DNA of 64,000 nucleotides from an uncultured Gammaproteobacteria bacterium (GCA_964522405.1 CAZFTR010000001.1:4602-68601); one strand, 5' to 3'. Positions 1-62,476 are shown, numbered from the stretch's first letter. A program made the numbers and translations. Notes: generated by a model from the sequence alone, not told the origin.

Positions 1-106
1 ATTTTACTCCGCGTTGATATTCGTTTACCTGGCGGATACTGATAACTATTATCAGTAGTACGAAGCCGATGGCGTATCCCATATATTTTAATTAAGGATT
101 AAATTG

Positions 107-178
107 TGGGTCTGCAAGGAATCGAACCTTGATCTAAAGCTTAGAAGGCTTCTATTCTATCCGTTGAACTACAGACCC
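107..178 (-). tRNA. tRNA-Arg (anticodon TCT)
   Basis: The reverse complement GGGTCTGTAGTTCAACGGATAGAATAGAAGCCTTCTAAGCTTTAGATCAAGGTTCGATTCCTTGCAGACCCA folds as a cloverleaf: 7-bp acceptor stem GGGTCTG/CAGACCC, T-arm CAAGG-TTCGATT-CCTTG, anticodon loop CTTCTAA. CCA is not encoded. Confidence 0.8.
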
Positions 179-218: not shown

Positions 219-1217
219 TCAATCCTGTTGACGATTTTTTCCATGAAATTTTTTATGTATATTTTTTAGTTCTCGGTCAGTAATGTGGGTATATATTTGG
301 GTAGTGGTGATAGAGGAGTGGCCAAGCATGCTCTGCACACTTCGAATATCTGCGCCATTCTGGAGTAAATCTGTCGCATATGAATGTCTAAGTGTGTGTG
401 GAGTTACTGGTTTTGTAATTCCAGCCATTTTTGCATATTTTTGCACACTTCTTTGAACAGATCTGGGAGTAAGCGGTATATCTTCTACAGGTTTTCCAGT
501 CTTGCCACTTACTGTCTTCTGTTTTCCGGTTCTTTTGTCATGAGAAATGAATAAATAGGGATTGATATCATATCTGGCTTCTAAATATTTCTTTATCCAA
601 TATCTGGCTTGCTCTGAAAGGAAGACAATTCTGCTTTTACCACCCTTTCCTCTTATAGTAAATTCTTCTTTTTTGAGGTTTATATCAGTTATTTTTAGCT
701 TAACTAGCTCTGACACACGAAGTCCGGCTGAAAAAAGTAATTCCAAGATTGCTTTGTCTCTAAGTGATATTAATTGCTTAGCAGAGGCTTTTTTCTTTTT
801 TTCAATTCCGGGGATTCCTTGAATCGGAGCTTCCATAAGTCTATCTAAGTCAGTTCCTTCCAGAAAACTAACTTCTCGATCTGGCATTTTCATAAGTTCT
901 ATTTTTTCCGGAGCCAAAGTCTCTACATCCCTTTTGGCTAGATATTTTAAAAATGATCTAACAGCTATAAGATGGTAATTTTGAGTATTTTTTTTGAGAG
1001 GGTCTCCATGAACATCAATAAGTCTATTGAGCCAAAGTCGATATTTACGTACTTTTTCTGCAGTTATAGCACTTGGTTTTTTATTTTCGCCAAGCCATTC
1101 AAGAAATCTGCTTAAATAAAAATGATAATTTTGTATAGTCCTATCACTACGATTTTTTTCAATTTCCAGGTATTCAAGAAATTCTTTTAAATAAATTTTC
1201 AGATTTTTTTCTGGCAT
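219..1217 (-). CDS. tyrosine site-specific recombinase, XerC/XerD-like
   Basis: The C-terminal catalytic region HTLRHSYATDLLQNGADIRSVQSMLGHSSITTTQIYTHI gives the R..H..R..Y signature of phage-integrase/Xer recombinases. The N-terminus has a SAM-like core-binding domain. Confidence 0.85.
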   Translation of the reverse strand: MPEKNLKIYLKEFLEYLEIEKNRSDRTIQNYHFYLSRFLEWLGENKKPSAITAEKVRKYRLWLNRLIDVHGDPLKKNTQNYHLIAVRSFLKYLAKRDVETLAPEKIELMKMPDREVSFLEGTDLDRLMEAPIQGIPGIEKKKKASAKQLISLRDKAILELLFSAGLRVSELVKLKITDINLKKEEFTIRGKGGKSRIVFLSEQARYWIKKYLEARYDINPYLFISHDKRTGKQKTVSGKTGKPVEDIPLTPRSVQRSVQKYAKMAGITKPVTPHTLRHSYATDLLQNGADIRSVQSMLGHSSITTTQIYTHITDRELKNIHKKFHGKNRQQD

Positions 1218-1413: not shown

Positions 1414-4400
1414 ATGAATAGGCTTGAAAAGAAAACAAAGCCATTTTTGCATATCAGTGCATTTCTAACTGCTGCAGCATTTGTGGTTGCCTTTGCTTTT
1501 CTTTTTTCTGATCTTCATGCAGTAACTAAGACTTGGGATTTTGATAGTGCTTCAGATTATACCTTTGATGCAGATTATCTAAAAATAACAGATGGAAAAG
1601 CAGGGTTTGTGACATTTGATCAAACAGACGATGATAATACTCAAACAGGTTTTGGTGGTGGTACACACACAGGTACAGGCTGGAGTGCCAGTAATAACAG
1701 TCTGGGTATAGTTACCGGTACAGTTGCTCTTTATTGGAAATTTGATGAGGTAAGCGGAAATTTAGTCACTGATTCGTCCGGTAGTGGTATGAATGGAGGC
1801 TTGAATCAAAGTGATGGTTTTGATAATAACTGGGTTTTAGGAAAGTTTGCTAATGCTTTTGAATTTGCTAGCTCAACAAGTGAATCATTTGTAGCGCCAA
1901 CCTTTAATACTAAGCCAAATAGCGAACTGTATACCTCTGATATTTTTAGCGTTGCGCTTTGGGTTAGGTTAGATGAGTTGGTTGATAATAATTTTATTGA
2001 TTTATTTCATCGTATCAGCGGTGGAATTTCACGTTTGTACATGAGAGTCCAACCTACTCATAAAATAAGTTGGTCCATATGGGATGGAAGTCCGAATTGG
2101 AGTGGTTTGGTGGGGAATACTACTATTGAAATTGATAATTGGTACTATGTTGTTGGTACATATGATGGGGAAAATTTAAAGCTCTATATTAATGGTGAAT
2201 TAGATGGTTCAATGGCTAATTCCAATGGGATTGAGCAGTTTGATGGTAATAGAATCGCTGGTATAGCAACTATTACAGGAGGTCCTTATGGCGCAACTCA
2301 ACATTTGGATGGAATAGTTGATGATGTTCAATATTATTCTCGCGCCCTAAGCACAGAAGAAATATTGCATAATTACATCAACAGGCCCCCAGCCCAGCAA
2401 GGAATATTTGAATCACGTGTCATGAACAATTACGCAGCATCTTACTGGTGGTCATTAGCATGGAATCCAAAAGCTCCATATGGCAAAGAATTGCCAGATA
2501 ATCCACGTATGGGATTATTGATGCATTTTGATGAGGCAAGCGGAAGTACTGATTTTATCGATTCTTCAAGCGGTGGTAATTTAATATCATGTTCTGGCAC
2601 TTCTTGTCCGCTAACCGGCATAGCAAGTCAGCTTAGTACAGGCGCATATTTTGATGGAGTAGATGACAAGCTGGTTTTTAGTAATAGTCCTACATATAAT
2701 GCTGATGAAATCAAAGATTTTTCATTTAGTACATGGGTAAAGTCTGATTTGAGTCAGAATGGTTTTCATGTTATTGCTTCCGGAGGTTTATCTGATAACT
2801 CTGGCTGGAGTGTCTATACTTACAAAACTGCAAGTGGTGCTGAAAACGTGTATTTTGAAATAGCAAGACCTGGATATACAACTCAATACAAGATACGCGG
2901 TGTCAGTACACAAGATGATAGGTTTGTTTTTATTGGAGGTACCTATGATGCTAGTACTGATGAACTCATTATTTACAAAAATGGTAGTGGAATCGTTGGT
3001 TATGATTCAGCTGGAGCATTAACACAGGCACCTGGAGATGTTTTTGAAATTGGACAAAGAGCACTGCATTCCGGTTTTTCGGATTTTCCCTTCAGAGGTG
3101 TTATAGATGAATTTACGATTTACAATAAAAAGCTTTCAGATCAAGAGATGAGAAATCTATTTGTAGCCCAAAGACAAGGGGCTGCCATGTTGGACGACAA
3201 TGCACCTGATCGAGCTTTAGTGCTTCATATGAATGAAGCAGGAGGTAGTTCGGCGTTTAAAGACAAATCATCTTATAATAATAGCGCCTCTTGTTCTGGT
3301 AATACATGTCCTGTAGCGGGTGTAGAAGGACAAGTTGGCACAGCTTTGAAGTTTGATGGCGTTGATGATTATGTAGAGATAAGTGGTAGTAGTTTAGAAA
3401 TTTCTGATAAATTAACAATGGGTCTCTGGGTAAAACCGGAAACTAGCGGCTCGCATAAACAATTGATAAGTAAGAATCCGGCACCTGGCTCAGTGTCAAG
3501 TTATTATTTGTCATTAACAGCGCTAAAACCATGTGTTTGGCTTGGTCAAAACATGGTGGGTTGGAAATGTTCCATTAGTGCCGTACCTCTTAATGAATGG
3601 TCGTATGTTGCTGCAGTATTTGATGGTAGAAGTTTGAGAATTTATATCAATGGTGTTTTGGACAAAACATATAGTGGTCTAAGTGGTGTTATACCTACAA
3701 ACCCGGGTACATCAGTATGGCTTGGAAATAGACCTGATCTTTCCGGATATATGTATAAAGGTGGAATGGATGAAATAACCATATTCAGCAAAGCACTTTC
3801 CGCAGAAAAAATTTTAAATATATATAATGAACAAAAAATAGGAAAATTGGGATTGGAAAATATTGCCAGCGATCGCTCATTGGAAACAGCACAATACAGT
3901 GCAAGTGGAGCTAACATGACAGATAACGAATTATTATTGCATTTTAATGAAGCTTCATACAGTGGAACAGTAGATGAAGTTGTAGATAAATCAGGAAATG
4001 AGAATCACGGATTAGTGGTTGGAGGAGGCGATACTGTTGCCTATGGAAAATTAAATAGAGCAGCAAGTTTTGATGGAGTTGATGATAGTGTAACCATTGC
4101 TGATAACAATACCCTGGACACCAAGGAATCTGATTTAAGTATCGAAGCATGGATTAAACCGGAAAACGTTTCACAGGCCGGATATATCGTAACAAAACGT
4201 CTAAATGAATCTCCATGGACACAATGGGGCGTGGGAATATTTGATGGTAGTACTAATTATGGTTCAGGAAAGAAATTAGTCTGTACTTTCGGTTTAACCT
4301 CAGGTAGTGGTAGTTATTTTCATGATGTGGTGACAGTTGATGATATATTAGATGGGGATTGGCATCATGTAGTTTGTCGTGTTGATTATGGTAATAACAT

Positions 4401-7400
4401 AGAAGTATTTGTAGATGGTGTAAAAGTGGATACAAACATTATAAGAGATCAGAGTTGGACATCTCTTGAAAATGATGAACCAATTACAGTGGGTTCTGGG
4501 AATGGCGCCTTTTATTACAAGGGTTTAATTGATGAAGTTGCTGTCTATAGTCGTGCTTTATTGGATGAAGAAGTCCTAGATAGATACAAACGTGGGGCTG
4601 TTCGTGTTAAGTATCAAATTCGCTCATGCAATGACAGTGCTTGTGACGGTGAAACATATATGGGGCCGGATGGAACAGCAAGTACATATTATTCAGAATT
4701 ACAAAATAGTTTTTATTCAACTCCGGCCATAGGGCTTGCGAGTGTTCCGAATAATACGTACTTTCAGTATAAGGCAATATTTGAAACAGAAAACGCTTCA
4801 TATTTACCAGAAATATCATCAGTAACAGCAGGCCCAGATCATCAATCAATTGGTACATTTGAATTGATGCCAGCTAAGGCGTCAGCAGTATCATTTGCAA
4901 ATATAGACAGCTTCACAGATCAGGATGTTGGATTGATTACCGGTATAAATGATCCAGTGCCATACTACCAAATAACAAACCAAGGTGATCAAGAAATGCC
5001 TTCTTGGTATTTTTGGAATGGTTCAAGCTGGGCACAAACTTTTAACCCGGATGATTCCAATACTGAGTCAGAAATAAATACAAACATATCACAATTTTCA
5101 ACAGACATTGGAACTGGAAAATTCCTTTGGAAAGCATTTTTAAAAGTTATAGAAGCAGCAAAGAGTCTCAAGTTGTTCCAAGTAGAAGTAGATTACAATG
5201 CGCCTCCTACAGCTAATGTACTTGAAACAAAAGGGTCAGCAGTATATTTTGATGGGGAGAATGATTATATAACAATTCCTGATTCAGAAGGTTTTAATTT
5301 TGCAGGAAAGACGGCAAGTGTAGCCTTTTGGTTTAAGGTGCCTAATATTGAAATAATAAATCACATGATTGATCGTCAGGAGGGTGGATATCCTGGAGCA
5401 GGTTGGTATATAGGAATAAGACCAAATGGTAGATTGCACATAAATCATAGAGCCACAGATGACACTATTAATCTTTACTCAACAGCTCTTGTCAACGATA
5501 ATCAATGGCATTTCGGAGTGATAACCATTGATTCAGCTGATAATTTAGCAACAATGTATGTGGATGGAGTATTAAACTCAACCGATACCTTTGAGGGATT
5601 GATAGATAAAAATGATTCTTTCTTTATTGGTACTACTGGTGGTGGAAATTCGTCATATTATTTTAAAGGTTCAGTAGATGAAATAGCTTTTTATAATTAC
5701 AGTCTTACTCAGGAAGAAATAGACTTGTATTACAATTCAGGTAATGGCAGACGCGGTTTAGCTTCGGACAATGGATTAATTTCTGGTTGGAATTTTGACG
5801 AAGGAGCTGGAGATACCGCAAAAGACTATGGAATAAATGCCAATAATGGAGAATTATACAATGGCGCAACTTGGGTTCCAGGAAAGATTTCAGAGACAAC
5901 AAATATGTATGGTCCATATCCATATTTTTCAAGTATCTTTAATGATACCAAAGATAGTTATAAATCAGCACTTAGTTTTGATGGTGGCGGAGGATATGTT
6001 GAACTGGGAAAGAAGTTAGACGAAGAAAATATTACGGTTTTAGCTTGGATAAAGCTGGATGAACATAATTATTTTAATTATATAACCAGTAATTCCAGAG
6101 ATTGTTGTGCTAAATACGATGGGGATGAACTTAAGGTCAATGAAGGTGGTAGGCTTAGTGGTAGGATTTGGAATAATGATCCTGCAATTAGTGATTGGAA
6201 TTTAGTTAATGCAAAACTTGTTTCAAATCAGGTTTTAGCACTAGATACTTGGTACCAAGTAGCCTTTACATATGATGGCTCAACCATGGCTCTTTATGTG
6301 AATGGTGAACTTGATAATACTAAGGCCTCTACTCTCGGTATTGGTCAACCGTCTTCGTTTAATAGAACAATTGGAGCGATGGCAATGAGTCCGCATAATT
6401 ATAATTTTAGAGGTGATCTAGATGAGGTATCAATTTATGATCGTGCTCTTACAGCAGAAGAAATAGCAACTCATTATAACGGCGGTAATGGAAGATATGG
6501 TTTGGCAACAGATAGTGGATTAATAGGAGGTTGGCATTTTTATGAAGGTGCTGGAAATGCTGTGCAAGATTATAGTCCATACGGCAATCATGGAACAATA
6601 AAAAATAGTCTAGAATGGACCACAGGAGTTGTAAATGATCATGATTACGCCAACAAAGCTCGCATCCAAGTAAGTACAGATCCAAATTTTGAAAATATTA
6701 CTCACTGGGATTCAGGAGTTGAAGGTACAACACTTCCAAATTTTGTAGTTGCTTCTGAAAGATCAAAAGATATCAAATATGGCTCTCTTGGAAATGGTCC
6801 AATAATAGATTCGTTTAGTATGGCTGATGGGGACATTACCTATTATTGGCGTATAAAGTATTGGGATCATCATGGAGCAGAGGGAATATGGTCAGCTACA
6901 AGCAGTTTTACTATGCTTGACGCACCGGTTGCTCCTGGATCTGTTTCTGCTGCTAGAGTGTCAGACAATGAATTTACAGTTGGTTGGCAAGATCTTTCAA
7001 CTACAGAAGATAAATTTGTTTTAGAAAGAGACTACACACTCGGCGCTGGTGGATTTATGGGTTGGCAAAAGCTTACGGATTTAGCTCCAAACATAACCAA
7101 TTATACAGATAGTTCTACAGAAGTTGATTCAAAATACAAATATCGAGTAAAGGCAGTAAACCAAGCAGGTGAGTCAATTTATACAGAAGATCCGATAGAG
7201 CATTTCACCTCACCAAAGGCGCCTACCAGTGTAAGCTCAACCTATGATGGAGAAAATGCATTTACTGTTTCTTTTACTGATACTTCAGCAATTTCAAATA
7301 TACACGATGTAGAGAGATGTGATGATCAGATTTGTGACAATAATATCTATATGGCTGTAAGTGGTTCACCTGTTTCCACCTCGACTTTTCAAGATGCAGG

Positions 7401-10400
7401 TCTTGCTACAAACGCCAGATATAGATGGAGAGTACGTGCCTCTCTTGATCCAACTTCAGAATTGACTTCAGAATATGCCTATTCAAATTATGAGTTTAGT
7501 AAACCGCTTGCTCCAAGTAATTTTGCTTCAGAATTTGTAAGTGATAATCAGATTAATCTATCTTGGACAGATGATGTGCAATATGAGAGTGGATTTACAA
7601 TTTATGTTTCCGAGGATGGTAGTGAATATACTCCGATAACAATTGGAAACTCAACAACTACTGTTTCTCAAAATACTACAAATTATAGTTATGCTGATTC
7701 ATCCACAAATCATTCCTATAGTTTTAAGGCAAAATCATATATTGATGCTACAGCCAGTAACTCCGAGTTATTTTCAGATGATTCAGACATGACAGAAGTA
7801 ATTTATACATCACCTGTTGCGCCAACAATGTTAGCAGCAGTACCACTGAATTCAAGTAATATTCAATGGAATTTTACAGATAATTCAAATTATGAATTCG
7901 GGTATAAATTATTTACTGATGGGGGAGGAGAGATATTAAATTCAGAAAATGCAAATCTTGGCTCAATAGTTGAATCTGGCCTTTCTCCAAATACTGAATA
8001 TTCTCGTTATGTAACAACTTACAACAATTCAGGTTCTGCTTCTAGTGCAGTTACTTCAACTTATACAATCTCTGCAACTCCTTCAAACGGTCGTTCAATT
8101 TTCACATCTCAGACAGCTATAACAGTTGCCTGGGATGCAAATGGTAATCCTGATGGAACAGAATACTATATTGTCAATTCAAATACAGGTGCAAATTCCG
8201 GATGGGTAACAAAGCAAGAATTTGAGTTTAGTGATTTTAAATGTGGAAACAGTTATACTTTTGAAATAAAATCAAGAAACGCTCTAAGTCTCGAATCAAA
8301 TAATCATTCACTATCAATAAAAACAGATAATTGTTATGGTGGAGGAAGTCCAGCTACCCCACCTCCGGCATTGCCACCACCTCCAGAACCACCTAAGCCT
8401 GGAGATTTCAGCCTGGTTATAAATGAAGGTGAGCTGATTACAAACAATCTCACGGTAGTGCTTGCTATTGATGGAGGAGAAGATGCTATTATGATGGCTA
8501 TTTCAGAAGATGAAGGTTTTTTCGATACTTCTCAGATTCCATACAGTGAAGCATATGCTTTCCCATTATCAGAAGAAAATGGGACTAAGGTAGTTTATAT
8601 AAAGTTTTTTACAGAAGATGGAACTGAATCCCCAGTTATTTCTTCTGAAATTATTCTTGACACAGAAGCTCCGGAAATAATTGATCTAGAAATAGAAGAT
8701 GAATTTGAATTTGATCAAAATGTAATTGTAAAGGGAACTTCAGAAGCAGGAGCAAATATAATCCCAACTTTAAATAGTTCTCAAAAAACTGCAATTGAAA
8801 TTGATCAAGATGGAAATTGGGAAATTGATTTTGGTATTTTGGATTCAGGTGAATATATACTTGAACTGGTGACTAGAGATGGAGCTGGAAATGAGGGAGA
8901 TACTTATCTAGTTGCTTTTGTAGTTAATGAGGAGCCTATTGAAGAAGAGTCACAACCGCCGTCAGGAACAGCGACCACAACACCTGCGACAACTACCACT
9001 ACTCCGGAAGATGGCGAGGGCGGAGGATTGCCAGATCTTATAGACGAAGTTACAGACGTTATAGAAGATGTTCAGGATGCTGTGGACGAAACATATGAGG
9101 ATATAAAAGAAATAGTCAAAGAAATAATTCCATTGCCAGGACCACAAACAGGAGGTGAGTCTATAATTCCAACAGTGACCACCCAGAGCGGAAGTGAATT
9201 ATTAGGAGATGGACTATTGAGCTTTGGTTCAATAGGTCTGCCAAAAACATTTACAAATCTGGTTACCAGTTTCCCAACACTTGAAAAGACTTTTAGAGAT
9301 TTTGGAGTGAGAAATATAGCAGATCTTCATAGATTGCAGGGTGTAACTCTTGCTCTACCAACTATTGATGAACTTGTACCGGCTGATTCACTTGCTAAGT
9401 CAGCATTGGTTTTAGATACGCTTGAGGGATATACTATTGATGATTTAAGAGACGCTGCAGAAAAATTACCAACAGATGTAGTATTTTTTGAACTCAACAA
9501 TGGAAAGATTGCGCTTGCTCCGGTTGTAAATGGGGCATCATTTAGTGGAGAGGGTCCGACATTTAGAACTATACCAAATCAGGCTGTAAGCATGATTATA
9601 AGACCTTCAGAACCAGTTGAAACAATTACTTCACAGGTTGCGCTTAGAGAGCTTAGAACTAGGCAAGTTGCAGAAGCTCAAAAGAAAACAACCATACAAT
9701 CAGTAATTGATGCATTTGGGGAGACTGTCTCTGCTGTTCAGGTAAATGAAGTATCAGCAGCAGAAATAAAGGATCAAGATTTGGAAAGTACTCCTCAAGA
9801 TGAAAAAGGAAGATTTATTGTTGATCAAGTTGATTTTGAAGATTCAAATGATGATGGGGTTTATGTGGCAGATATAAATACTCCAGAAGTTTTTGGAAGT
9901 TTTGATATTATTACTGATGTTGATTATTCAACTCAGAAGAAGGACAATATCATTACCAATACCATGCTAATTGATCCTGAAGGTTATGTCTTTCACCAGA
10001 CAATTTCCGGAGAGGTTAGATTGGCAAATGCTAAAGTATCACTCTATCATTTTAGTGAAGAGTCTAGTGAATTTGAGCTTTGGGATGCAGAAAAATATGG
10101 ACAGGTAAATCCGCAGATTACAGATGATTCAGGAACTTATGCATTTTTAGTACCAGAAGGTCAGTATTATATTTCCGCACTTGCATCAACCTATAAACCA
10201 TATCAGTCACGAGGATTTACAGTACAGTCAAGTGGAAGAGGGGTACATATAAATATTGGACTTCAAAAATACTTTGATGTTGAACAATTCCTAAATATTG
10301 ATTATATAATTGTTACCATATTGATTGTCCTTTTAATACTTATGGTAAGAAGACTATTCAAAGGGATTAGAAAAATGAAAAAATACGATGATTATAATTA

Positions 10401-10401
10401 A
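1414..10401 (+). CDS. giant (2995 aa) cell-surface protein with an N-terminal signal/TM, six or more LamG (concanavalin-A-like, Laminin_G_3) repeats, several fibronectin-III-like domains, Pro-rich and Thr-rich linkers, and a C-terminal TM anchor
   Basis: Recurrent LamG motifs (L[KR][LI]Y[IV]NG..D) run with ALSFDGVDD...W.K and DE..IY.RALS..EI blocks at about aa 255, 520, 740, 975, 1380 and 1625. FN3-like SWTD/VGWQD segments lie at about aa 1850-2300. Linkers are PATPPPALPPPPEPPKPG and TATTTPATTTTTPEDGEGGG. The C-terminal hydrophobic helix IIVTILIVLLILMV is followed by RRLFKGIRKMKK. Confidence 0.8.
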   Translation: MNRLEKKTKPFLHISAFLTAAAFVVAFAFLFSDLHAVTKTWDFDSASDYTFDADYLKITDGKAGFVTFDQTDDDNTQTGFGGGTHTGTGWSASNNSLGIVTGTVALYWKFDEVSGNLVTDSSGSGMNGGLNQSDGFDNNWVLGKFANAFEFASSTSESFVAPTFNTKPNSELYTSDIFSVALWVRLDELVDNNFIDLFHRISGGISRLYMRVQPTHKISWSIWDGSPNWSGLVGNTTIEIDNWYYVVGTYDGENLKLYINGELDGSMANSNGIEQFDGNRIAGIATITGGPYGATQHLDGIVDDVQYYSRALSTEEILHNYINRPPAQQGIFESRVMNNYAASYWWSLAWNPKAPYGKELPDNPRMGLLMHFDEASGSTDFIDSSSGGNLISCSGTSCPLTGIASQLSTGAYFDGVDDKLVFSNSPTYNADEIKDFSFSTWVKSDLSQNGFHVIASGGLSDNSGWSVYTYKTASGAENVYFEIARPGYTTQYKIRGVSTQDDRFVFIGGTYDASTDELIIYKNGSGIVGYDSAGALTQAPGDVFEIGQRALHSGFSDFPFRGVIDEFTIYNKKLSDQEMRNLFVAQRQGAAMLDDNAPDRALVLHMNEAGGSSAFKDKSSYNNSASCSGNTCPVAGVEGQVGTALKFDGVDDYVEISGSSLEISDKLTMGLWVKPETSGSHKQLISKNPAPGSVSSYYLSLTALKPCVWLGQNMVGWKCSISAVPLNEWSYVAAVFDGRSLRIYINGVLDKTYSGLSGVIPTNPGTSVWLGNRPDLSGYMYKGGMDEITIFSKALSAEKILNIYNEQKIGKLGLENIASDRSLETAQYSASGANMTDNELLLHFNEASYSGTVDEVVDKSGNENHGLVVGGGDTVAYGKLNRAASFDGVDDSVTIADNNTLDTKESDLSIEAWIKPENVSQAGYIVTKRLNESPWTQWGVGIFDGSTNYGSGKKLVCTFGLTSGSGSYFHDVVTVDDILDGDWHHVVCRVDYGNNIEVFVDGVKVDTNIIRDQSWTSLENDEPITVGSGNGAFYYKGLIDEVAVYSRALLDEEVLDRYKRGAVRVKYQIRSCNDSACDGETYMGPDGTASTYYSELQNSFYSTPAIGLASVPNNTYFQYKAIFETENASYLPEISSVTAGPDHQSIGTFELMPAKASAVSFANIDSFTDQDVGLITGINDPVPYYQITNQGDQEMPSWYFWNGSSWAQTFNPDDSNTESEINTNISQFSTDIGTGKFLWKAFLKVIEAAKSLKLFQVEVDYNAPPTANVLETKGSAVYFDGENDYITIPDSEGFNFAGKTASVAFWFKVPNIEIINHMIDRQEGGYPGAGWYIGIRPNGRLHINHRATDDTINLYSTALVNDNQWHFGVITIDSADNLATMYVDGVLNSTDTFEGLIDKNDSFFIGTTGGGNSSYYFKGSVDEIAFYNYSLTQEEIDLYYNSGNGRRGLASDNGLISGWNFDEGAGDTAKDYGINANNGELYNGATWVPGKISETTNMYGPYPYFSSIFNDTKDSYKSALSFDGGGGYVELGKKLDEENITVLAWIKLDEHNYFNYITSNSRDCCAKYDGDELKVNEGGRLSGRIWNNDPAISDWNLVNAKLVSNQVLALDTWYQVAFTYDGSTMALYVNGELDNTKASTLGIGQPSSFNRTIGAMAMSPHNYNFRGDLDEVSIYDRALTAEEIATHYNGGNGRYGLATDSGLIGGWHFYEGAGNAVQDYSPYGNHGTIKNSLEWTTGVVNDHDYANKARIQVSTDPNFENITHWDSGVEGTTLPNFVVASERSKDIKYGSLGNGPIIDSFSMADGDITYYWRIKYWDHHGAEGIWSATSSFTMLDAPVAPGSVSAARVSDNEFTVGWQDLSTTEDKFVLERDYTLGAGGFMGWQKLTDLAPNITNYTDSSTEVDSKYKYRVKAVNQAGESIYTEDPIEHFTSPKAPTSVSSTYDGENAFTVSFTDTSAISNIHDVERCDDQICDNNIYMAVSGSPVSTSTFQDAGLATNARYRWRVRASLDPTSELTSEYAYSNYEFSKPLAPSNFASEFVSDNQINLSWTDDVQYESGFTIYVSEDGSEYTPITIGNSTTTVSQNTTNYSYADSSTNHSYSFKAKSYIDATASNSELFSDDSDMTEVIYTSPVAPTMLAAVPLNSSNIQWNFTDNSNYEFGYKLFTDGGGEILNSENANLGSIVESGLSPNTEYSRYVTTYNNSGSASSAVTSTYTISATPSNGRSIFTSQTAITVAWDANGNPDGTEYYIVNSNTGANSGWVTKQEFEFSDFKCGNSYTFEIKSRNALSLESNNHSLSIKTDNCYGGGSPATPPPALPPPPEPPKPGDFSLVINEGELITNNLTVVLAIDGGEDAIMMAISEDEGFFDTSQIPYSEAYAFPLSEENGTKVVYIKFFTEDGTESPVISSEIILDTEAPEIIDLEIEDEFEFDQNVIVKGTSEAGANIIPTLNSSQKTAIEIDQDGNWEIDFGILDSGEYILELVTRDGAGNEGDTYLVAFVVNEEPIEEESQPPSGTATTTPATTTTTPEDGEGGGLPDLIDEVTDVIEDVQDAVDETYEDIKEIVKEIIPLPGPQTGGESIIPTVTTQSGSELLGDGLLSFGSIGLPKTFTNLVTSFPTLEKTFRDFGVRNIADLHRLQGVTLALPTIDELVPADSLAKSALVLDTLEGYTIDDLRDAAEKLPTDVVFFELNNGKIALAPVVNGASFSGEGPTFRTIPNQAVSMIIRPSEPVETITSQVALRELRTRQVAEAQKKTTIQSVIDAFGETVSAVQVNEVSAAEIKDQDLESTPQDEKGRFIVDQVDFEDSNDDGVYVADINTPEVFGSFDIITDVDYSTQKKDNIITNTMLIDPEGYVFHQTISGEVRLANAKVSLYHFSEESSEFELWDAEKYGQVNPQITDDSGTYAFLVPEGQYYISALASTYKPYQSRGFTVQSSGRGVHINIGLQKYFDVEQFLNIDYIIVTILIVLLILMVRRLFKGIRKMKKYDDYN

Positions 10402-10826: not shown

Positions 10827-10900
10827 TTTTCTAAAAAAATTATAAACAGTCGCATTTCAAATGTGACTTTTTTGCTTTTAAAAACTATTACTTAAAAATT

Positions 10901-10972
10901 GCTTCGCCGTCCTCGCCTCTCTTGCTAATCTGCTTTCAGCATTAGCAAGGAGTCTGCGGATTGTCTCATCAA
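10901..10972 (+). repeat. copy 1 of a ~70-nt conserved intergenic element (candidate structured-RNA motif). The other copies are at 36644-36712 and 62304-62372
   Basis: Conserved 5' flank gcttcgccgtcctcgcc, a hairpin with stem CTTGCTAAT/ATTAGCAAG and constant loop CTGCTTTCAGC, and conserved 3' flank ctgcggattgtctcatc. Confidence 0.6.
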
Positions 10973-11039
10973 TCTTTAAGTAATACTTTTTAAAAGCAAA
11001 AATAAACTATATCTTGACCCAGCACCATAAGCCAGAGGG

Positions 11040-11068
11040 TTGACAAAGTCACTTTTTTGTGGTATAAT
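11040..11068 (+). promoter_or_regulatory. sigma-70-like promoter, TTGACA-17nt-TGgTATAAT
   Basis: Perfect -35 TTGACA, 17-nt spacer, and a TG-extended TATAAT -10. It lies about 190 nt upstream of the 11260 gene. Confidence 0.6.
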
Positions 11069-23631: not shown

Positions 23632-23759
23632 ATCGTGCCTCCTTGAGGCTTCCGGTTCTAGTCTGTTCAGTATTGTTGTCTTTTTTTGATAAAAAGTCAA
23701 GTCTGGAGTTTAGATTGACAAAACAACAATTTTGTCCTAATATGGGTATACAATTATAA

Positions 23760-23935
23760 AAGCGCAATACTCGCTATCAACGAGGATTCTGAGTCTCAGA
23801 AGCGCTGAAAGAAGAAAAACTTATATAAAGTTTAGTAGAATTTTCCGGGTAAGCCCGTAATAGCAGAAATTAAGAGCCACTTTGGAAGTGAGATGGTACC
23901 GCCCGATATTGGGTTCTCATGTGAGTGGTTTTTTA
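23760..23935 (+). promoter_or_regulatory. candidate T-box riboswitch leader of ileS
   Basis: A ~180-nt structured leader contains GAGAUGGUACCGCCCG, which resembles the T-box core (UGGUACCGC, 23895-23903), then a hairpin plus U-run near 23905-23934. ileS is the classic T-box-regulated gene. An Ile codon candidate (ATC, 23776-23778) sits in a loop context. Confidence 0.5.
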
Positions 23936-24083
23936 TTTATTATTAGTAAATTTGTTTAACCGTATTTATTATAAAATTCAACTCAGCTCTACAGAAATAA
24001 TTTGATATTCAGTTTAAATTGATCGCTCAACGTTTCATTTTATAATAAATACGGTTAAATTAACTCAAGCTATTAATTCATGT

Positions 24084-27053
24084 ATGCCTTACGAATCAAA
24101 TAAACATGAACTTGAAATAAAAAAGTTCTGGGACAACAACAAAATTTTTGAAAAATCTATAAATGAGCGTCCGGAAGATCAGCCCTATGTTTTTTATGAT
24201 GGTCCACCATTTGCAACCGGCTTGCCACATTATGGACATATAGTTGCCAGTTTGATGAAAGATGTTGTTCCCAGATATTGGACTATGCAAGGAAAGCGGG
24301 TTGAGCGTCTTTGGGGTTGGGATTGTCATGGTTTGCCGATTGAAAATATTGTTGAAAAAGAAATTGGATCAAAAAGTAAACAAGATATTGAAGAAATGGG
24401 AGTTGAAAAATTCAATGAGTCCTGTCGCTCAAAAGTTTTACATTATATAGATGAATGGAAAAGGACTATTCAAAGACTTGGACGCTGGGTTGATATGGAC
24501 AATGCCTACAAAACCATGGACAAAGATTATATGGAGTCAGTTTGGTGGGTTTTCAAAGAGCTTTGGGACAATGGTTTTGTTTATAAAGGATATAAATCAA
24601 TGCATGTTTGTCCACGTTGTGAGACAACACTTTCTCAGCAAGAAGTAAGTGAAGGTTACAAAGACATAAAAGATCTTTCCGCAACTGTAAAGTTTAAAAT
24701 TACCTCTACAATTTCAGATATTCATCAAGACCTGGGTGTGTGTAATGATCTCTTTGTTCTAGCTTGGACAACTACCCCTTGGACACTTCCTGGAAATGCC
24801 CTTTTGGCAGTTGGTGAGGATATTGAATATACAGTTGTTAAATTTGAAGGCTCTTGTTATGTGGTTGCCAAAGAAAGATTAATTGAAGTTTTTGATGAAA
24901 GAGAATTTGAAGTTGTTCAGCAATTAAAAGGAAAAGACCTGTTAGGTTTGGAATATGAGCCATTGTTTCCATATTATACTGATACAGAAAATGCTTTTAA
25001 GGTTGTGGCAGGAGATTTTGTAAGCACAGAAGAAGGAACAGGCGTGGTGCATATAGCTCCGGCTTTTGGTGAGGATGATTATCAAACAGGAAAAAAAGAA
25101 AAAACCGGCTGGGTCCAGCATGTTTCAATGAATGGAAAATTTAAGCCGGAAGTTGCAGATTTTGCAGGTCAGCAAGTTAAGCCAATAGAAGATCCTCAAA
25201 AAACAGATATAGAAATAATTAAATGGCTTGCTCACAATGAAAAGTTATTTTCAAAGAAAAAATATCTACATAGTTATCCGCATTGTTGGAGATGTGACAC
25301 CCCTCTAATAAATTACGCAACAGATTCCTGGTTCGTAAATGTAGAAAAATTAAAAAAGGACGCGCTTAAACATGCCAAAGAAATAAATTGGTCTCCAGAA
25401 CATATGAAAGAGGGGCGTTTTGGGAAGTGGCTAGAAGGAGCACGAGATTGGTCAATTTCTCGCCAGCGTTTTTGGGCATCAGTAATTCCAATTTGGGAAT
25501 GTGATAAGACAGGTGAATTTCATGTTATCGGTTCTGTAGAAGAACTTGAGAAATTAACCGGAGAAAAAATAGAAGACCTACATAAGCATACAGTAGATAA
25601 ACTAACTTGGAAAAATCAAAAAACAGGAGGAACTATGAAACGAATTCCAGATGTTCTTGATTGTTGGTTTGAAGCAGGTTCAATGCCTTACGCCCAAGTT
25701 CATTATCCATTTGCCAATCAAGAAAAATTTGAAGCAAGTTTTCCAGCAGAATTTATTGCCGAAGGACAAGATCAAACACGAGCCTGGTTTTATTATCTGC
25801 ATATTATTGCAACAGGTGTAAAACAAAAACATGCATTTAACAATGTGGTGGTAAATGGAATAGTTCTAGCAGAAGACGGAAAGAAGATGAGTAAGAAATT
25901 ACAAAATTATCCAGACCCAATGGTTGTGCTGGAGAAATACGGAGCAGATGCGCTTAGATACTACTTGGTGAGTTCACCGGTGATGCAAGCAGAAACTTTG
26001 AATTTTTCAGAAGAAGGTGTTCGAGAAGTTTTTAATAAGGTTGTCAATACACTTTGGAATGTAGGTAGTTTTTATGAGATGTTTGCAGATGAAAATTCAA
26101 AGTTCGATTTAGAATTGGCAAAGAATTCAAAAAATGTTTTGGATAAATGGATACTTGCCAAACTACATAGATTGCTTGAAGAAGTTACAAAAGAAATGAA
26201 TGAATACAGACTTAATGATGCATCTCGCCCAATTTTAGATTTTATATTAGATCTTTCACAGTGGTATGTGCGCAGATCAAGAGATAGATTTAAAGGTGAT
26301 GATGAAGAAGATAAAAAAGCAGCACTTGCTACGCTCCATGAAGTTCTTTTAACTCTTTCAAAAATCATGGCACCGTTTACTCCGTTTATTGCAGAGAAGA
26401 TTTATAAAGAAGTTGGTGGTGAGAAAGAATCTGTTCATTTGGATATGTGGCCAGAGGTGGATCAAAATATTTTGCTAGCAAACACGAATCTCTTAGTGGA
26501 TATGGAATCAGTCAGAGAAGTAGTTAAGCTTGGAAATTCTCTTAGAAAAGAAAACTCATTGAAAGTTAGACAGCCGCTTGCAAGTTTAAAAGCAGTTGCT
26601 ACTCTCTCAGGAGATAAAGATTATCTTGAGCAATATCAAAAAATTATTTCAGAAGAATTAAATATTAAGAAAGTTGAGTTAAGAAATTTACCTGGAAATA
26701 AAGAAATGGAAGAGATGAGAAGTTTGGCAAATGATAAAATTAAAGTTGCCGAAGATCAAAGATCTATCGTAGTCCTTAACACAGAAATAACCCCACAACT
26801 CGCCAAAGAAGGACTTCTCCGCGAAACAATCCGCGCCATAAATCAAATCAGAAAACAACAAGGCTTGATAATGCATGACCAAGTTCTTGTAGAATTTTCA
26901 ACAGAAGATAAAGTATTAAATGAAATCTTTACAAAAGCAGAATTTGCAGAAGAATTAAAAAAACAAACACTCACAAGTGAAATCAAATCAGGTGGAACTG
27001 AAGAAATAGAAATAGATAAAAGAAAAATTAAGATAATTGTGAAAAAAGCGTAA
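24084..27053 (+). CDS. ileS: isoleucine--tRNA ligase
   Basis: HIGH motif PHYGHI, KMSKS motif KMSKKL, WSISRQRFWAS and the Zn-binding CPRCE segment. 989 aa. Confidence 0.9.
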   Translation: MPYESNKHELEIKKFWDNNKIFEKSINERPEDQPYVFYDGPPFATGLPHYGHIVASLMKDVVPRYWTMQGKRVERLWGWDCHGLPIENIVEKEIGSKSKQDIEEMGVEKFNESCRSKVLHYIDEWKRTIQRLGRWVDMDNAYKTMDKDYMESVWWVFKELWDNGFVYKGYKSMHVCPRCETTLSQQEVSEGYKDIKDLSATVKFKITSTISDIHQDLGVCNDLFVLAWTTTPWTLPGNALLAVGEDIEYTVVKFEGSCYVVAKERLIEVFDEREFEVVQQLKGKDLLGLEYEPLFPYYTDTENAFKVVAGDFVSTEEGTGVVHIAPAFGEDDYQTGKKEKTGWVQHVSMNGKFKPEVADFAGQQVKPIEDPQKTDIEIIKWLAHNEKLFSKKKYLHSYPHCWRCDTPLINYATDSWFVNVEKLKKDALKHAKEINWSPEHMKEGRFGKWLEGARDWSISRQRFWASVIPIWECDKTGEFHVIGSVEELEKLTGEKIEDLHKHTVDKLTWKNQKTGGTMKRIPDVLDCWFEAGSMPYAQVHYPFANQEKFEASFPAEFIAEGQDQTRAWFYYLHIIATGVKQKHAFNNVVVNGIVLAEDGKKMSKKLQNYPDPMVVLEKYGADALRYYLVSSPVMQAETLNFSEEGVREVFNKVVNTLWNVGSFYEMFADENSKFDLELAKNSKNVLDKWILAKLHRLLEEVTKEMNEYRLNDASRPILDFILDLSQWYVRRSRDRFKGDDEEDKKAALATLHEVLLTLSKIMAPFTPFIAEKIYKEVGGEKESVHLDMWPEVDQNILLANTNLLVDMESVREVVKLGNSLRKENSLKVRQPLASLKAVATLSGDKDYLEQYQKIISEELNIKKVELRNLPGNKEMEEMRSLANDKIKVAEDQRSIVVLNTEITPQLAKEGLLRETIRAINQIRKQQGLIMHDQVLVEFSTEDKVLNEIFTKAEFAEELKKQTLTSEIKSGGTEEIEIDKRKIKIIVKKA

Positions 27054-27679: not shown

Positions 27680-28141
27680 CTATCGCTTGCCGTACTTTTT
27701 ACGCAGGCTGCGACGCTCGATTTCGCGCTCCAGGAGATCCACCGCTTTTTTGGCTTCCTTGAGCCACCAGTGGCGGATGTCATGGATGTTGCCTTCTTTC
27801 AGGCACTTCCAGAGGAGCCAGAGCCAGTACTGGGTACCGTCTTCTTCGCCGTAGATCAGCGTTTCGAACGGTTCGGGGAGGTTGAAGCCCCCGTCCTTGT
27901 GCTCGGTCATCTCGAATCCCTTGTCGCCATTCTCAACTGCTGCGGCGACCAGGTCGACGAGTCTGTCCTCTCTGCGGTAGAGCTGTCTCTCCTCGCGCAT
28001 GACAGCGAGGAAATCAGTCCAGTCCTCCATGTACGCGGGGACGTAACTGAGGAACTGCTCACTCATCTCACCCACCCAGTGCTCGTGCCTATCAGCAACG
28101 AATTCCGTGTAGGAGAGATCCAAAAACTCTCTTCTATCCAT
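27680..28141 (-). CDS. GC-rich hypothetical protein (153 aa)
   Basis: Protein-like, Trp-rich acidic sequence. SD GGAG lies 7 nt before the ATG, and the 5' leader has a GC hairpin CCCCGGC-acggg-GCCGGGG at 28162-28180. About 57% GC. Confidence 0.55.
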   Translation of the reverse strand: MDRREFLDLSYTEFVADRHEHWVGEMSEQFLSYVPAYMEDWTDFLAVMREERQLYRREDRLVDLVAAAVENGDKGFEMTEHKDGGFNLPEPFETLIYGEEDGTQYWLWLLWKCLKEGNIHDIRHWWLKEAKKAVDLLEREIERRSLRKKYGKR

Positions 28142-28569
28142 CTAACACTCCGAAGCTACTGCCCCGGCCCCGTGCCGGGGAGCTCCGAGATCTCTCTCGG
28201 TTATATCTAGCAAATTTTGCAAAATATAATCGAGAGAGATTTTTGAGTTTTAAATGTCAGCTTTCAAATTATACAAACGAATTATATAATTTGGAACTGT
28301 CCCGAGGCTGAAGCTTCGGGTGAGTTTCTGGCGCTGTTGCGACCTGAGTCGCGAGGCGCAGTTGGTCTTGCTCTTAGAGTGTTGGGGGAGCTGATTGACC
28401 CTACCCCTTCTACTGATTTCGAACTTGTCGCACAGCCGGTTTTCTGGCTCTCTACCTACTCAATTGCCAACTCGTGGCATCCACATCTAGATTTCCCCGA
28501 AAGTTCAGAGAAACTCTCGGTCCACAGGAGCGGAGTTAAATCCGCATCTTCATCGATTAGAAATCGATG

Positions 28570-28872
28570 CTACTTGCTTCCCTCCTGGTGTTTCACCAGA
28601 CGTCGATGGACTTTCTCATCGGCGTAGTCCAGCTCGAGTCGGAGCATCGCGTCCTCGAAGGAGCTCAGCGCTTTCTCGACGCTGTCCGGCGTCGTCGTCT
28701 CGGTGGTGGTGATCGACTGGGAGATCGGATCGGCCCATGCATGGAGGATGCGCGTGGCACGTTTTCCGTACTTGTGGCGCGCGCCTTCGGGCATGTTGCG
28801 CATGACAGAGGTCAGTCGGTTCTCGAGCGCCTCGAGACGGACCTGGAAAAGATATTGCTCGCTTTTCTTCAT
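28570..28872 (-). CDS. GC-rich hypothetical protein (~100 aa; start ATG 28872 chosen by analogy to its paralogous leader, alternative GTG at 28893)
   Basis: A leader paralogous to the 153-aa gene: hairpin CCCTGGt-aaagg-GCCAGGG, then gcagtRgcttYggag, then 7-9 nt, then ATG. Confidence 0.45.
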   Translation of the reverse strand: MKKSEQYLFQVRLEALENRLTSVMRNMPEGARHKYGKRATRILHAWADPISQSITTTETTTPDSVEKALSSFEDAMLRLELDYADEKVHRRLVKHQEGSK

Positions 28873-29111
28873 CTTTCTTTTCTCCAAAGCCACTGCCCTG
28901 GCCCTTTACCAGGGAGCCCAAGAGATTTCCCTTGGTTAAGCGAAAAAAGCAGATAACCGCTTAAATTAGGCAAAAGCCTAAATTTTCGCTAAATCAAGGG
29001 AAATTTCAGTGAATTGTCAATAACGGCTAACAATTAATTATAGCAGGTTTTGACGGTTTTGTCAATGAGTGGTAAAATTAGATAACGACTTCAAAAATTA
29101 ACTAAAAAATT

Positions 29112-30596: not shown

Positions 30597-30625
30597 GTAG
30601 GGATCGCTTACGCGTTTATTAGGCT

Positions 30626-30670
30626 GGCTTGGGGTATTCGGATTTACGGATGATTCAGATAATACGGATC
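30626..30670 (+). repeat. copy a of a second dispersed intergenic repeat family (modules GGCTTGGGGTATTCGGAT and GGATTTACGGAT..ACGGATC)
   Basis: Both modules recur at 56858-56943 in a different order. The region is noticeably more GC-rich than its surroundings. Confidence 0.6.
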
Positions 30671-30736
30671 GAACAATGTGTTGGTAAATCATTATTCACT
30701 TGTTAATTATTAATTGTTAGTTGCTAGTTAAGTAGT

Positions 30737-36582: not shown

Positions 36583-36643
36583 ATATGTTTTTATATTTAT
36601 TTCTTCTTTGGTTATAATTTTAGAGTATATTTTATTAAACTAG

Positions 36644-36712
36644 CTTCGCCGTCCTCGCCTCTCTTGTTGATTTGCTTTCAGCATCAACAAGGTGGCTGTG
36701 GATTGTCTCATC
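36644..36712 (+). repeat. copy 2 of the ~70-nt conserved intergenic element
   Basis: gcttcgccgtcctcgcctct-CTTGTTGAT-ttgctttcagc-ATCAACAAG-gtggctgtggattgtctcatc. The stem carries compensatory changes relative to copy 1. Confidence 0.6.
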
Positions 36713-36805
36713 TACTTTAATAAAATATACTCTAAAATTATAACAACTGATTTCAATAAAAAGGGATCTTATTAGAATCATCCCGCCTATATTGTAGTTT
36801 GTAAA

Positions 36806-37540
36806 TTATTCACTGTCAATTTCTATAGTAGAAGTTGTGATTTCTATTGTGCTGGTTACTGAGTCAGTGCTGGTGGACATTTTTTCTAATATTAGATTGG
36901 CAAAACTTTCGCGAATGGCAGCAATCAATGATTGATCTTCATCTTTATTTTTGATTTCATCAATTCTTTTTTCCAGTGTTTCATCTGATTTGGTGATTAT
37001 TTTCATGGTTTCCTGCAGATCATCTTTGCTTTCACTGAGAAGTCTTTCTTCTAGTCCAGTTTCTTGCTTTGTGTCATATAGAAAAGTTTTTATATTGAAA
37101 AACCAAATGATAAATATTGCCAGAGAAAAAATTATCACTCCAGCCCACATCCAAACAAATAGATTTTTTCCATGTACAACAGGTTTTGCCATTTGTTTTT
37201 GTGGTTTTTGGAATTTAACTGTAGGTTTTGTAGGTGGCAGTTCAATATTTGCTGGTTTTTGAGCAGGTGGCTGTTTGCTTGGGGTGAGAACCGGTCTTTT
37301 CTTAATATCCTGCAATATCATGCTCGGAATTTCATCAACCATTTTTTTGATTGCTTTTTTTTCTTCTAATTTTTCTAGTTTTTCAGTAGGTGGAGTTTTT
37401 TCTAGAACTTTTTTCACTCTTTTTTTTCTGGGCTTAGTTTTCTTTTTTGCAACAGTTTTTTTTGCAGGTTTTTTTGGAGCAATTTTCTTTTTTTTGCCTT
37501 TTGCCTCTGCTTTGGGTTTTTTTGTTTTTTTGACAGGCAT
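36806..37540 (-). CDS. hypothetical protein with a Lys/Pro/Ala-rich (histone-H1-like) N-terminus, a central TM helix and an acidic C-terminus
   Basis: KKPKAEAKGKKKKIAPKKPAKK..., TM LFVWMWAGVIIFSLAIFIIWFF. Confidence 0.5.
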   Translation of the reverse strand: MPVKKTKKPKAEAKGKKKKIAPKKPAKKTVAKKKTKPRKKRVKKVLEKTPPTEKLEKLEEKKAIKKMVDEIPSMILQDIKKRPVLTPSKQPPAQKPANIELPPTKPTVKFQKPQKQMAKPVVHGKNLFVWMWAGVIIFSLAIFIIWFFNIKTFLYDTKQETGLEERLLSESKDDLQETMKIITKSDETLEKRIDEIKNKDEDQSLIAAIRESFANLILEKMSTSTDSVTSTIEITTSTIEIDSE

Positions 37541-56841: not shown

Positions 56842-56857
56842 TAAATCAACAGGTGTA

Positions 56858-56943
56858 CTGCGGATTTACGGATAATTGAAACGGATCATTGGCGCGTTGA
56901 TGAAACTGGCTTGGGGTATTCGGATAGATTATTTTATCCGAAT
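56858..56943 (+). repeat. copy b of the second dispersed intergenic repeat family
   Basis: ctgcGGATTTACGGATaATTgAaACGGATCattgg...ctGGCTTGGGGTATTCGGATagattattttATCCGAAT. The tail forms an 8-bp hairpin ATTCGGAT/ATCCGAAT. Confidence 0.6.
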
Positions 56944-56967
56944 GCTATCTGTAAAACCGGATACATA

Positions 56968-62259: not shown

Positions 62260-62303
62260 ATGTTGTTTTGACTTTTTGCGTTTGATTTTTTCTCTAAATC
62301 CTC

Positions 62304-62372
62304 CTTCGCCGTCCTCGGTTCTATTGTTGATCTGCTTTCAGCATCAACAATGTGCCTGCGGATTGTCTCATG
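62304..62372 (+). repeat. copy 3 of the ~70-nt conserved intergenic element
   Basis: ttcgccgtcctcggttct-ATTGTTGAT-ctgctttcagc-ATCAACAAT-gtgcctgcggattgtctcatg. The stem is again kept by compensatory changes. TGACTTTTTGC lies upstream, as in copy 1. Confidence 0.6.
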
Positions 62373-62476
62373 ATTTTTTAGAGAAAAAATCAATATAATT
62401 CATAAATTTATTCTACTACACATTTCAGAGATCAAATATAGATCTTTCAGCTATCTCCGAAGATGGATGCCCTGCG

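Follow-up and report, generated by a model that had tools for sequence, protein, structure and literature searches.

The window analysed here, i.e. the whole stretch of 64,000 nucleotides (64 kb), is chromosomal DNA of Candidatus Magasanikbacteria (CPR). The nearest GyrA sequences among 5.8 billion proteins showed 82-84% identity and belong to named Magasanikbacteria, and the genes of the window comprise gyrA, the genes of IleRS and ThrRS, ftsH, ruvA, a thymidylate-synthesis gene row and one tRNA gene. CPR bacteria possess tiny genomes, and to our knowledge almost nothing is known of their non-coding elements. The GC skew of the plus strand was positive in 14 of 16 bins of the 64-kb window; by the usual skew rule, the plus strand would thus be the leading-strand sequence and, with that, the lagging-strand template. 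A Pfam scan of the window ORFs revealed no transposase, only a Xer-like recombinase, and a RAYT (Y1 transposase) gene was likewise absent from the Pfam-scanned ORFs (64 kb plus the visible ~6 kb).

The Xer-like tyrosine recombinase (219-1217, minus strand; Phage_int_SAM_1 and Phage_integrase) adjoins tRNA-Arg(TCT) (106-178, minus strand), and short-read contigs break near this site. One ORF of 2,995 aa (1414-10401, plus strand) possesses an N-terminal hydrophobic segment, a C-terminal membrane anchor and internal repeats, e.g. FDGVDD. Upstream of the IleRS gene (24084-27053), a T-box leader was detected (23748-23921, plus strand), which is missed by the default scan, as it reached 40.5 bits (E 1e-7) versus an Rfam gathering threshold of 93. 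A long inverted repeat (23955-24059; arms of 23-28 bp, AT-rich apex of 49-59 nt) follows the T-box terminator and is separated by 24 nt from the ATG of IleRS; in a relative (L007/L054), an unrelated long inverted repeat is also located directly upstream of IleRS. Within 27770-28247 and 28567-29007, two small ORFs (146 and 129 aa, no Pfam match) showed similar GC-rich 3' ends, and each is followed by a long inverted repeat (28183-28247; 28922-29007).

Three intergenic regions of the window contain the same 68-nt sequence (CTTCGCC...GTCTCAT), which could be aligned without gaps. The three copies are 85-90% identical, with 8, 10 and 7 pairwise differences out of 68 positions. A degenerate 46-nt pattern yielded exactly three matches (10903, 36645 and 62305), all on the plus strand, with none expected (100 shuffles). 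The description in the earlier note of three copies in one orientation, all located between ORFs, was thereby confirmed. Copy 1 is flanked by a 137-aa ORF and a YtxH-like gene, both on the plus strand, copy 2 by a 244-aa ORF and gyrA, and copy 3 by the genes of a CoaE-like kinase and dut, in the latter two cases all on the minus strand. The third site is situated within the gene row dCMP deaminase-kinase-dut-thyA-folA-tmk. The orientation to the flanking genes is thus inconsistent, as had been noted before (plus/plus genes at copy 1, minus/minus at the other two). The sequence is sense to local transcription in one of three cases and antisense in two, versus three of three on the plus strand with respect to the chromosome. 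The features discussed below are located as follows.

10869..11002, plus strand: copy 1, whole hairpin (inverted repeat; MFE -51.0 kcal/mol, z -11.3)
10869..10901, plus strand: copy 1, 5' arm, AT-rich and copy-specific (inverted-repeat scan)
10902..10969, plus strand: copy 1, core (pattern, alignment)
10902-10915, plus strand: copy 1, 5' block of the core
10921-10929/10941-10949, plus strand: copy 1, stem of the core
10930-10940, plus strand: copy 1, apical loop of the core
10958-10969, plus strand: copy 1, 3' block of the core
10970..11002, plus strand: copy 1, 3' arm (inverted-repeat scan)
36611..36744, plus strand: copy 2, whole hairpin (-58.7 kcal/mol, z -12.5)
36644..36711, plus strand: copy 2, core (pattern, alignment)
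62282..62393, plus strand: copy 3, whole hairpin (-40.6 kcal/mol, z -6.4)
62304..62371, plus strand: copy 3, core (pattern, alignment)
10848..10878, plus strand: intrinsic terminator of the 137-aa gene, context outside the element (terminator scan; contains TGACTTTTTTGC)
11040..11068, plus strand: consensus promoter TTGACA-17-TATAAT with TG downstream of copy 1, context (promoter scan)
36791..36819, minus strand: promoter-like site TTGACA-17-TACAAT (11/12), context; would drive transcription through copy 2 into gyrA

The element had been described before as about 70 nt long. This holds for the conserved core; the whole element is about twice that length, and every core forms the apex of a near-perfect AT-rich inverted repeat with arms that differ from copy to copy. 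In copy 1, 31 of 33 positions of the arms (10869-10901/10970-11002) are paired (94% complementary), with 68 nt between them, and in copy 2 (36611-36643/36712-36744) 32 of 33. The 22-nt arms of copy 3 (62282-62303/62372-62393) form 17 perfect pairs, followed by three mismatches and two further pairs. The similarity between the copies ends exactly at the ends of the core, and the flanks are unrelated. As the cores cap inverted repeats and the similarity stops at their ends, the real units are hairpins of approximately 112-134 nt. No strand is favoured by the fold energies, since the reverse strands folded about equally well, for the whole hairpins as well as for the cores. The arms were also considered as possible guides directed at loci elsewhere, but among the matches listed none exceeded 13 nt. 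Over 51 elements with this layout, the arm mismatches comprised 21 G.T, 22 A.C and 44 transversion-type mismatches, i.e. no wobble bias was seen.

The cores have a GC content of 49-51% versus 37% in the window, and the nucleotides preceding them differ (ATTG, CTAG and CCTC). They are spaced by 25,742 and 25,660 nt, two distances only 82 nt apart (P ~0.004, calculated post hoc); a segmental duplication as the source of this spacing of about 25.7 kb was rejected by k-mer offset analysis, and the regularity is probably a coincidence. A second intergenic repeat family comprises two copies (30601-30680 and 56855-56960, plus strand) 26,282 nt apart, with a common exact 20-nt stretch (CTGGCTTGGGGTATTCGGAT) and CGGAT clusters. 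One of its copies contains CTGCGGATT, which is also present in the 68-nt core.

The consensus fold begins with the outer stem, which leads through an asymmetric internal loop (CUUC / CUCAU) to an irregular helix that has fixed bulges and contains two invariant G.U pairs; further inwards follow the covarying 9-bp stem and an apical loop with a 3-bp mini-stem. The earlier statement that the 9-bp stem differs between the copies by compensatory double changes proved correct: three pairs switch (C-G/A-U, U-A/C-G and G-C/A-U). All 12 variable columns of the core are confined to two 15-nt segments, and the three blocks (5', 14 nt; loop, 12 nt; 3', 12 nt) are invariant (P = 1.2e-5 for avoidance of these fixed blocks, which were defined post hoc). 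Together with the compensated stem, this avoidance is the pattern expected of a hairpin which is recognised by its shape plus specific bases. Over the named structure, 97.7% of the pair cells were paired, versus 81.9% after shuffling (0 of 500 shuffles reached the observed value) and 32-52% with slid partners. Changes on both sides were counted in 17 of 43 pairs, with 13 of these 17 in the non-homologous arms and a basis of three sequences. As pairing was kept through two-sided changes, the element appears to form a structured nucleic-acid hairpin, either as RNA or as single-stranded DNA. Only two one-sided changes occurred in the stem, both from C to U opposite G and tolerated on the plus strand only, and they are weak evidence that the plus strand is the strand that folds.

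The element had previously been proposed as a candidate novel structured RNA. Of this proposal, the conserved hairpin with compensatory changes and the lack of an Rfam match were retained; the step from covariation to an RNA in particular was not supported, as matching changes on the two sides of an inverted repeat can also originate and persist at the DNA level. The alternative given in the earlier note, a site recognised by a protein or a recombinase, may apply.

The transcriptional context differs between the three sites. Copy 1 is located between the intrinsic terminator at 10848-10878 and the perfect promoter at 11040-11068, and it lies outside any obvious transcript because it follows the terminator and precedes the promoter. 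Its 5' arm starts 1 nt past the stem of the upstream terminator and takes in the T-tail. In the direction of gyrA transcription, copy 2 is preceded by the minus-strand promoter-like site (36819->36791) and followed by the gyrA start codon (36582); the base of its hairpin is 28 nt away from the gyrA ATG, so that it belongs to the predicted gyrA 5' UTR, in antisense. Copy 3 lies between the stop codon of the CoaE-like kinase gene (62477) and the start of dut (62259), 22 nt upstream of the dut ATG. The consensus scan found no promoter-like site at copy 3 on either strand, which places this copy inside the predicted kinase-dut transcript, again in antisense.

Sigma-70 consensus promoters are readily visible elsewhere in the window. 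Consensus scans, which weak or unusual promoters would escape, detected neither a promoter nor a terminator common to the three copies on either strand, and the best -10-like hexamers lie inside the arms. An intrinsic terminator (GC-rich stem plus T-run) was not found by scanning at any of the three hairpins. These terminator and promoter scans of all three copies agree with the earlier view that the element is neither a terminator nor a leader. A motif had also been reported about 40 nt upstream of copies 1 and 3. Indeed, TGACTTTTT(T)GC occurs 35-38 nt upstream of both cores; in copy 1, it is the 3' half of the terminator with its T-tail, and the TGACTTTTTGC motif is outside the element.

No known Rfam family was matched, in line with the initial assumption of novelty: at the gathering threshold, the window yielded one tRNA only. 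In E-value scans against Rfam 15, the three copies gave weak matches to generic long hairpins, and no family was common to the three. Hammerhead and other ribozyme cores as well as K-turn/C-D box motifs (minus strand, inspected by eye) were considered and rejected, as the words GAUGAG and CGAAG are not conserved in the required manner; snoRNA matches in Rfam were at noise level only.

A covariance-model search for further homologues had been suggested in the earlier note, and it returned none in the window, in approximately 5.7 kb past its right end, in 4 loci of relatives or in a set of 80 loci. The model was built from three near-identical copies, so that its reach is limited and very divergent relatives could escape it. 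The set of 80 loci represents 1.35 Mb from 80 related Magasanikbacteria species, fetched via GyrA, without a match, and nhmmer agreed (0 matches; 1.35-1.47 Mb over the model and nhmmer searches). The right-hand extension of about 5.7 kb, obtained via Logan contigs, contained no new copy. An exact two-block pattern had 0 matches in 185,579 GTDB species genomes. In JGI metagenomes, it had three matches in GC-rich DNA, two of which (L005 and L006) lie in coding sequence, and the third (L004) looked non-coding and was set aside by eye only. These three and one further match, in GC-rich DNA of a viral contig, were judged to be due to chance, and blastn against phage and plasmid records gave 0 matches. 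Because matches were lacking in the searched genomes, metagenomes, phage and plasmid records and relatives, the core is confined, as far as can be seen, to one species.

One Logan contig (L012, SRR8146441_1798) stops about 15 nt before the hairpin of copy 3, a hint that assemblies are interrupted by the element. In one relative, the genes at the orthologous gyrA site are only 2 nt apart, and a long inverted repeat was present at this site in 5 of 80 relatives, which corresponds to chance level (background ~0.1 per kb). The idea that copy 2 invaded an ancestral hairpin in the gyrA 5' UTR is unsupported, as these 5 of 80 relatives equal the background density.

An inverted-repeat scan of the relatives revealed the same layout with unrelated cores, i.e. 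long AT-rich arms around a GC-rich structured apex. In Magasanikbacteria RIFCSPHIGHO2_01_FULL_33_34 (L027), a three-copy hairpin family was identified within 4.5 kb, and in two other species (L064 and L074) an orthologous element without an Rfam match is located just downstream of ftsH. The elements of the relatives have the following positions.

L027 15197-15296, 18246-18348 and 19665-19764, one strand: three-copy hairpin family (inverted-repeat scan)
L064 5487-5601 and L074 2150-2257: orthologous element just downstream of ftsH
L019 6855-6957, L050 4967-5102, L059 22319-22414, L067 21029-21134 and L090 19694-19811: further GC-rich apex modules

The three copies of the L027 family are all on one strand, between gene pairs oriented minus/minus, minus/plus and plus/plus, at spacings of 3,049 and 1,419 nt. 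Their core, inner arms and flanks are conserved, with TTTATAAT on the 5' side and ATAAATAACACT on the 3' side. The outer arms and the inner stem vary yet remain paired, and the inner hairpin covaries. In the element downstream of ftsH, the 55-nt core with two hairpins is 94.5% identical between the two species, and the arms of 27-30 bp are unrelated and still paired; a model of this element finds those two copies only. The apices of the five further modules have 62-71% GC over 32-68 nt, are enclosed in AT-rich inverted repeats of 25-34 bp and are not represented in Rfam; those of L059 and L067 have a common junction, CCA|TCGCAYC. In L031, the scan also retrieved 5S rRNA, which is enclosed by an extended flanking stem of 24 bp. 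Common motifs (CGGATT, TCGCC and CTTTCAG) that might link the core to those of the relatives were rejected, as their enrichment was weak at best: CGGATTT was about 4-fold enriched with six occurrences, three of which belong to the one L027 family, and the other motifs were enriched at most about 2-fold.

The reading that we favour, at somewhat less than an even chance, is that the element is a lineage-specific interspersed hairpin repeat resembling REP, ERIC or MITE sequences, known from three copies and acting as a nucleic-acid hairpin. The unit of homology is a 68-bp imperfect hairpin with three blocks constrained in sequence and a stem constrained only to pair. Each copy tops a locus-specific AT-rich inverted repeat, which gives a folded object of about 112-134 nt, and the element would act and spread as a DNA hairpin and not as a dedicated RNA gene. 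Recognition would take place on one strand by the structure and the conserved blocks, most plausibly on the plus strand, which is probably the lagging-strand template. Copies 2 and 3 would be transcribed passively within their transcription units and could then form a long perfect RNA duplex, which may be cut by an RNase specific for double strands.

The sharp core ends and the unrelated flanks fit a 68-bp unit that may have arrived separately at three sites, as judged from the alignment. A repeat at the DNA level also fits the missing promoters and terminators, the site at which copy 1 is found, an orientation which follows the chromosome strand and not the genes, as in the analogous L027 family, the narrow distribution, the chance-level frequency of inverted repeats at the orthologous gyrA site, the foreign-looking composition and the neutral-looking arm mismatches. 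The arms might originate from insertion into pre-existing palindromes or, alternatively, from fold-back copying of one flank. Copy 1 gives a hint of the latter, since its 3' arm is complementary to the tail of a functional terminator. Several points speak against such a hairpin repeat. The family is known from three copies only, it lacks conserved terminal inverted repeats and target-site duplications, no transposase is present in the window, and we know of no repeat family that explains a different perfect inverted repeat around every copy. Moreover, the element downstream of ftsH in L064 and L074 looks like the result of purifying selection on a structured molecule at the level of the host, which favours a functional RNA and argues against the hairpin repeat. 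A GC-rich core in an AT-rich genome and, on the plus strand, two invariant G.U pairs and two U.G variants are also typical of structured RNAs and count against a DNA repeat.

The main rival reading, somewhat less probable, is that the three copies are paralogous small stable RNAs of approximately 70-100 nt, encoded on the plus strand and matured from long-stem precursors. The AT-rich arms would then be a processing stem for an RNase III-like enzyme, the conserved blocks would bind a protein or a target, and Shine-Dalgarno-like sequences are possible pairing partners of the C/U-rich CCUCGCCUCUC stretch. Loops and junctions that stay conserved while the stems covary are classically taken as the mark of a structured RNA, the core is GC-rich within an AT-rich genome, and G.U pairing at two invariant and two variable positions is workable on the plus strand only. 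Highly expressed RNA genes are usually co-directional with replication, and the plus strand is probably co-directional as well. Data from the relatives point in the same direction: the L064/L074 core was kept while its arms were wholly turned over with pairing preserved, the 5S rRNA of L031 is flanked by an extended 24-bp stem, and the L027 family has the conserved TTTATAAT just upstream of the stem. Nevertheless, the autonomous small RNA gene suggested by the earlier note was not supported: the copies have no promoter or terminator in common, copy 1 is bracketed by the terminator of its neighbour and a perfect promoter, and folding favours neither strand. If the best -10-like hexamers within the arms were used, the stem would be taken out of the RNA. 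In addition, the arms show no wobble enrichment, and three paralogues within 64 kb of a reduced genome with none in relatives would be unusual.

Rather unlikely, though worth tentative consideration, is the assumption that the three copies are one family of an undescribed class of elements in Magasanikbacteria, characterised by a GC-rich constrained apex in long AT-rich stems. In such a class, the arms would stay perfectly complementary despite complete replacement of their sequence, even at orthologous loci. Its members might be small RNAs derived from long double-stranded precursors. Alternatively, they might be copies of a mobile module that either enters palindromes or makes them; in the mobile version, the arms would be kept matched by arm-to-arm copying.

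We regard it as improbable that the element is a cis-acting mRNA hairpin whose long duplex is functional in either orientation, as a processing site or as a 5' or 3' stabiliser. As an intercistronic or 5' UTR site, it could uncouple gyrA and dut from the upstream genes. Copies 2 and 3 would be well placed for this role, as they precede the start codons of gyrA (28 nt) and dut (22 nt) within predicted transcripts, and other long inverted repeats of the window lie upstream of the starts of IleRS (24 nt) and pepA (~104 nt). ERIC and REP sequences are known to affect mRNA decay (PMC3184786). This explanation leaves the invariant, asymmetric blocks of the core unexplained, though, copy 1 lies past a terminator and before a promoter, outside a clear transcript, and the inverted repeats upstream of gyrA in 5 of 80 relatives are at chance level.

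Still less credit is given to a polar DNA site for a chromosome-associated protein, which would serve in replication, segregation, recombination or domain organisation at regular intervals along the replichore. The single orientation of all three copies, the conserved sequence blocks and the spacings of 25,742 and 25,660 nt (P ~0.004, post hoc) would agree with such a site. However, binding to a duplex requires neither compensatory changes in a stem nor a long flanking palindrome, the copies of the analogous L027 family are not spaced periodically (3,049 and 1,419 nt), and the element is absent from relatives with the same chromosome biology. Finally, a small ORF on the minus strand encoding a peptide of 14-23 aa (MRQS(A/T)x(S/T)LLMLKA(D/N)....) is hardly credible: each copy has the ATG and an open frame over the first 14 codons, but a Shine-Dalgarno sequence is lacking, the position of the stop differs (14, 23 and 16 aa), the 'synonymous' change of a Leu codon is the covariation of the stem, and no open reading frame of the core had a match among 5.8 billion proteins.

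If the favoured hairpin repeat is a mobile module, its layout with a conserved apex and hypervariable paired arms would be unusual and the reverse of that of REPINs and MITEs, and the origin of the flanking palindromes and the way in which they stay matched would call for an explanation. If the element is an RNA, it would represent a lineage-specific small RNA family from long double-stranded precursors, located beside essential genes, i.e. gyrA and the dut-thyA-folA-tmk row. Under either reading, short-read assemblies appear to be interrupted at the elements, gene callers could be misled by them, and they mark a recurring, previously undescribed feature of the intergenic DNA of Magasanikbacteria.

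Among known systems, the ERIC/IRU elements (imperfect palindromes of ~127 bp) are alike in that they are intergenic, occur in multiple copies, form one long imperfect hairpin and are often co-transcribed in either orientation (PMC3184786). They are confined to Enterobacteriaceae and relatives, and co-transcribed ERIC repeats affect the mRNA (PMC3184786). The ERIC palindrome is conserved throughout, whereas here only the 68-nt apex is conserved and the outer stem differs in each copy. Furthermore, the host belongs to another phylum and the distribution of the element is far narrower; on these features, it would be distinct from ERIC, and the indirect evidence, with no match in plasmid and phage records or in GTDB genomes, likewise speaks against similarity to the 127-bp ERIC consensus.

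REP, BIME and REPIN sequences, which are mobilised by RAYT (Y1 HUH) transposases, are likewise short imperfect intergenic hairpins which are recognised by their shape and a few bases; they are lineage-specific, lack terminal inverted repeats and target duplications and are themselves targets for mobile DNA (PMC3184786; PMC3337134). IS1397 and IS621 insert into REP palindromes and are thus a precedent for mobile DNA that targets palindromes (PMC3184786). A REPIN consists of conserved arms (two inverted REPs) and a variable spacer; in the element studied here this is reversed, with a conserved apex and variable arms (PMC3337134). Neither a GTAG-type foot in the element nor a RAYT gene among the window ORFs was seen, and only three copies are known.

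MITEs are defined by terminal inverted repeats common to the copies and by flanking target-site duplications. A MITE terminus, named in the earlier note as an identity that would overturn the proposal, does not apply, as the core ends (CTTCGCCGTCC... / ...GGATTGTCTCAT) are not inverted copies of each other and the flanking repeats are unrelated between the copies. No direct repeats indicative of a target-site duplication were found at the core ends (ATTG/CAAT, CTAG/CTAC and CCTC/GATT) or outside the arms. Similarities to MITEs such as Correia, RUP and Nezha are that these are shorter than 200 bp, non-coding and dispersed and are predicted to form stable RNA hairpins (PMC3184786); Correia-type elements are co-transcribed (PMC3184786).

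The ends of IS200/IS605-family elements and their derivatives, which transpose as single strands ('peel and paste'), are also imperfect hairpins with conserved bulges, without terminal inverted repeats and without duplications. According to Ton-Hoang et al. in 2010, the strand bias of IS200/IS605 is reportedly tied to the lagging-strand template. These elements carry a distinct hairpin at each end and integrate 3' of an invariable tetra- or pentanucleotide, whereas here one hairpin is present and the 5' neighbours differ. Integron attC sites, in which the R''/R' boxes (RYYYAAC / GTTRRRY) lie at the ends around a variable centre in cassette arrays, were considered and rejected: the arrangement is reversed in the element, and its copies occur about 25.7 kb apart among housekeeping genes and not in cassette arrays.

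The processing stems of stable RNAs (pre-5S, pre-16S and pre-23S rRNA) are similar in that a GC-rich structured RNA is enclosed in a long, fast-evolving flanking helix. The rRNAs are products of single essential genes with promoters and are conserved across phyla, in contrast to the core, whose three copies are restricted to one species and lack an evident promoter. On the features tested, the element is not a known RNA, not a MITE and not a REPIN. By analogy, its mode of action would be closest to that of intergenic palindromic repeats, but its inverted layout is unusual and is seen repeatedly among Magasanikbacteria.
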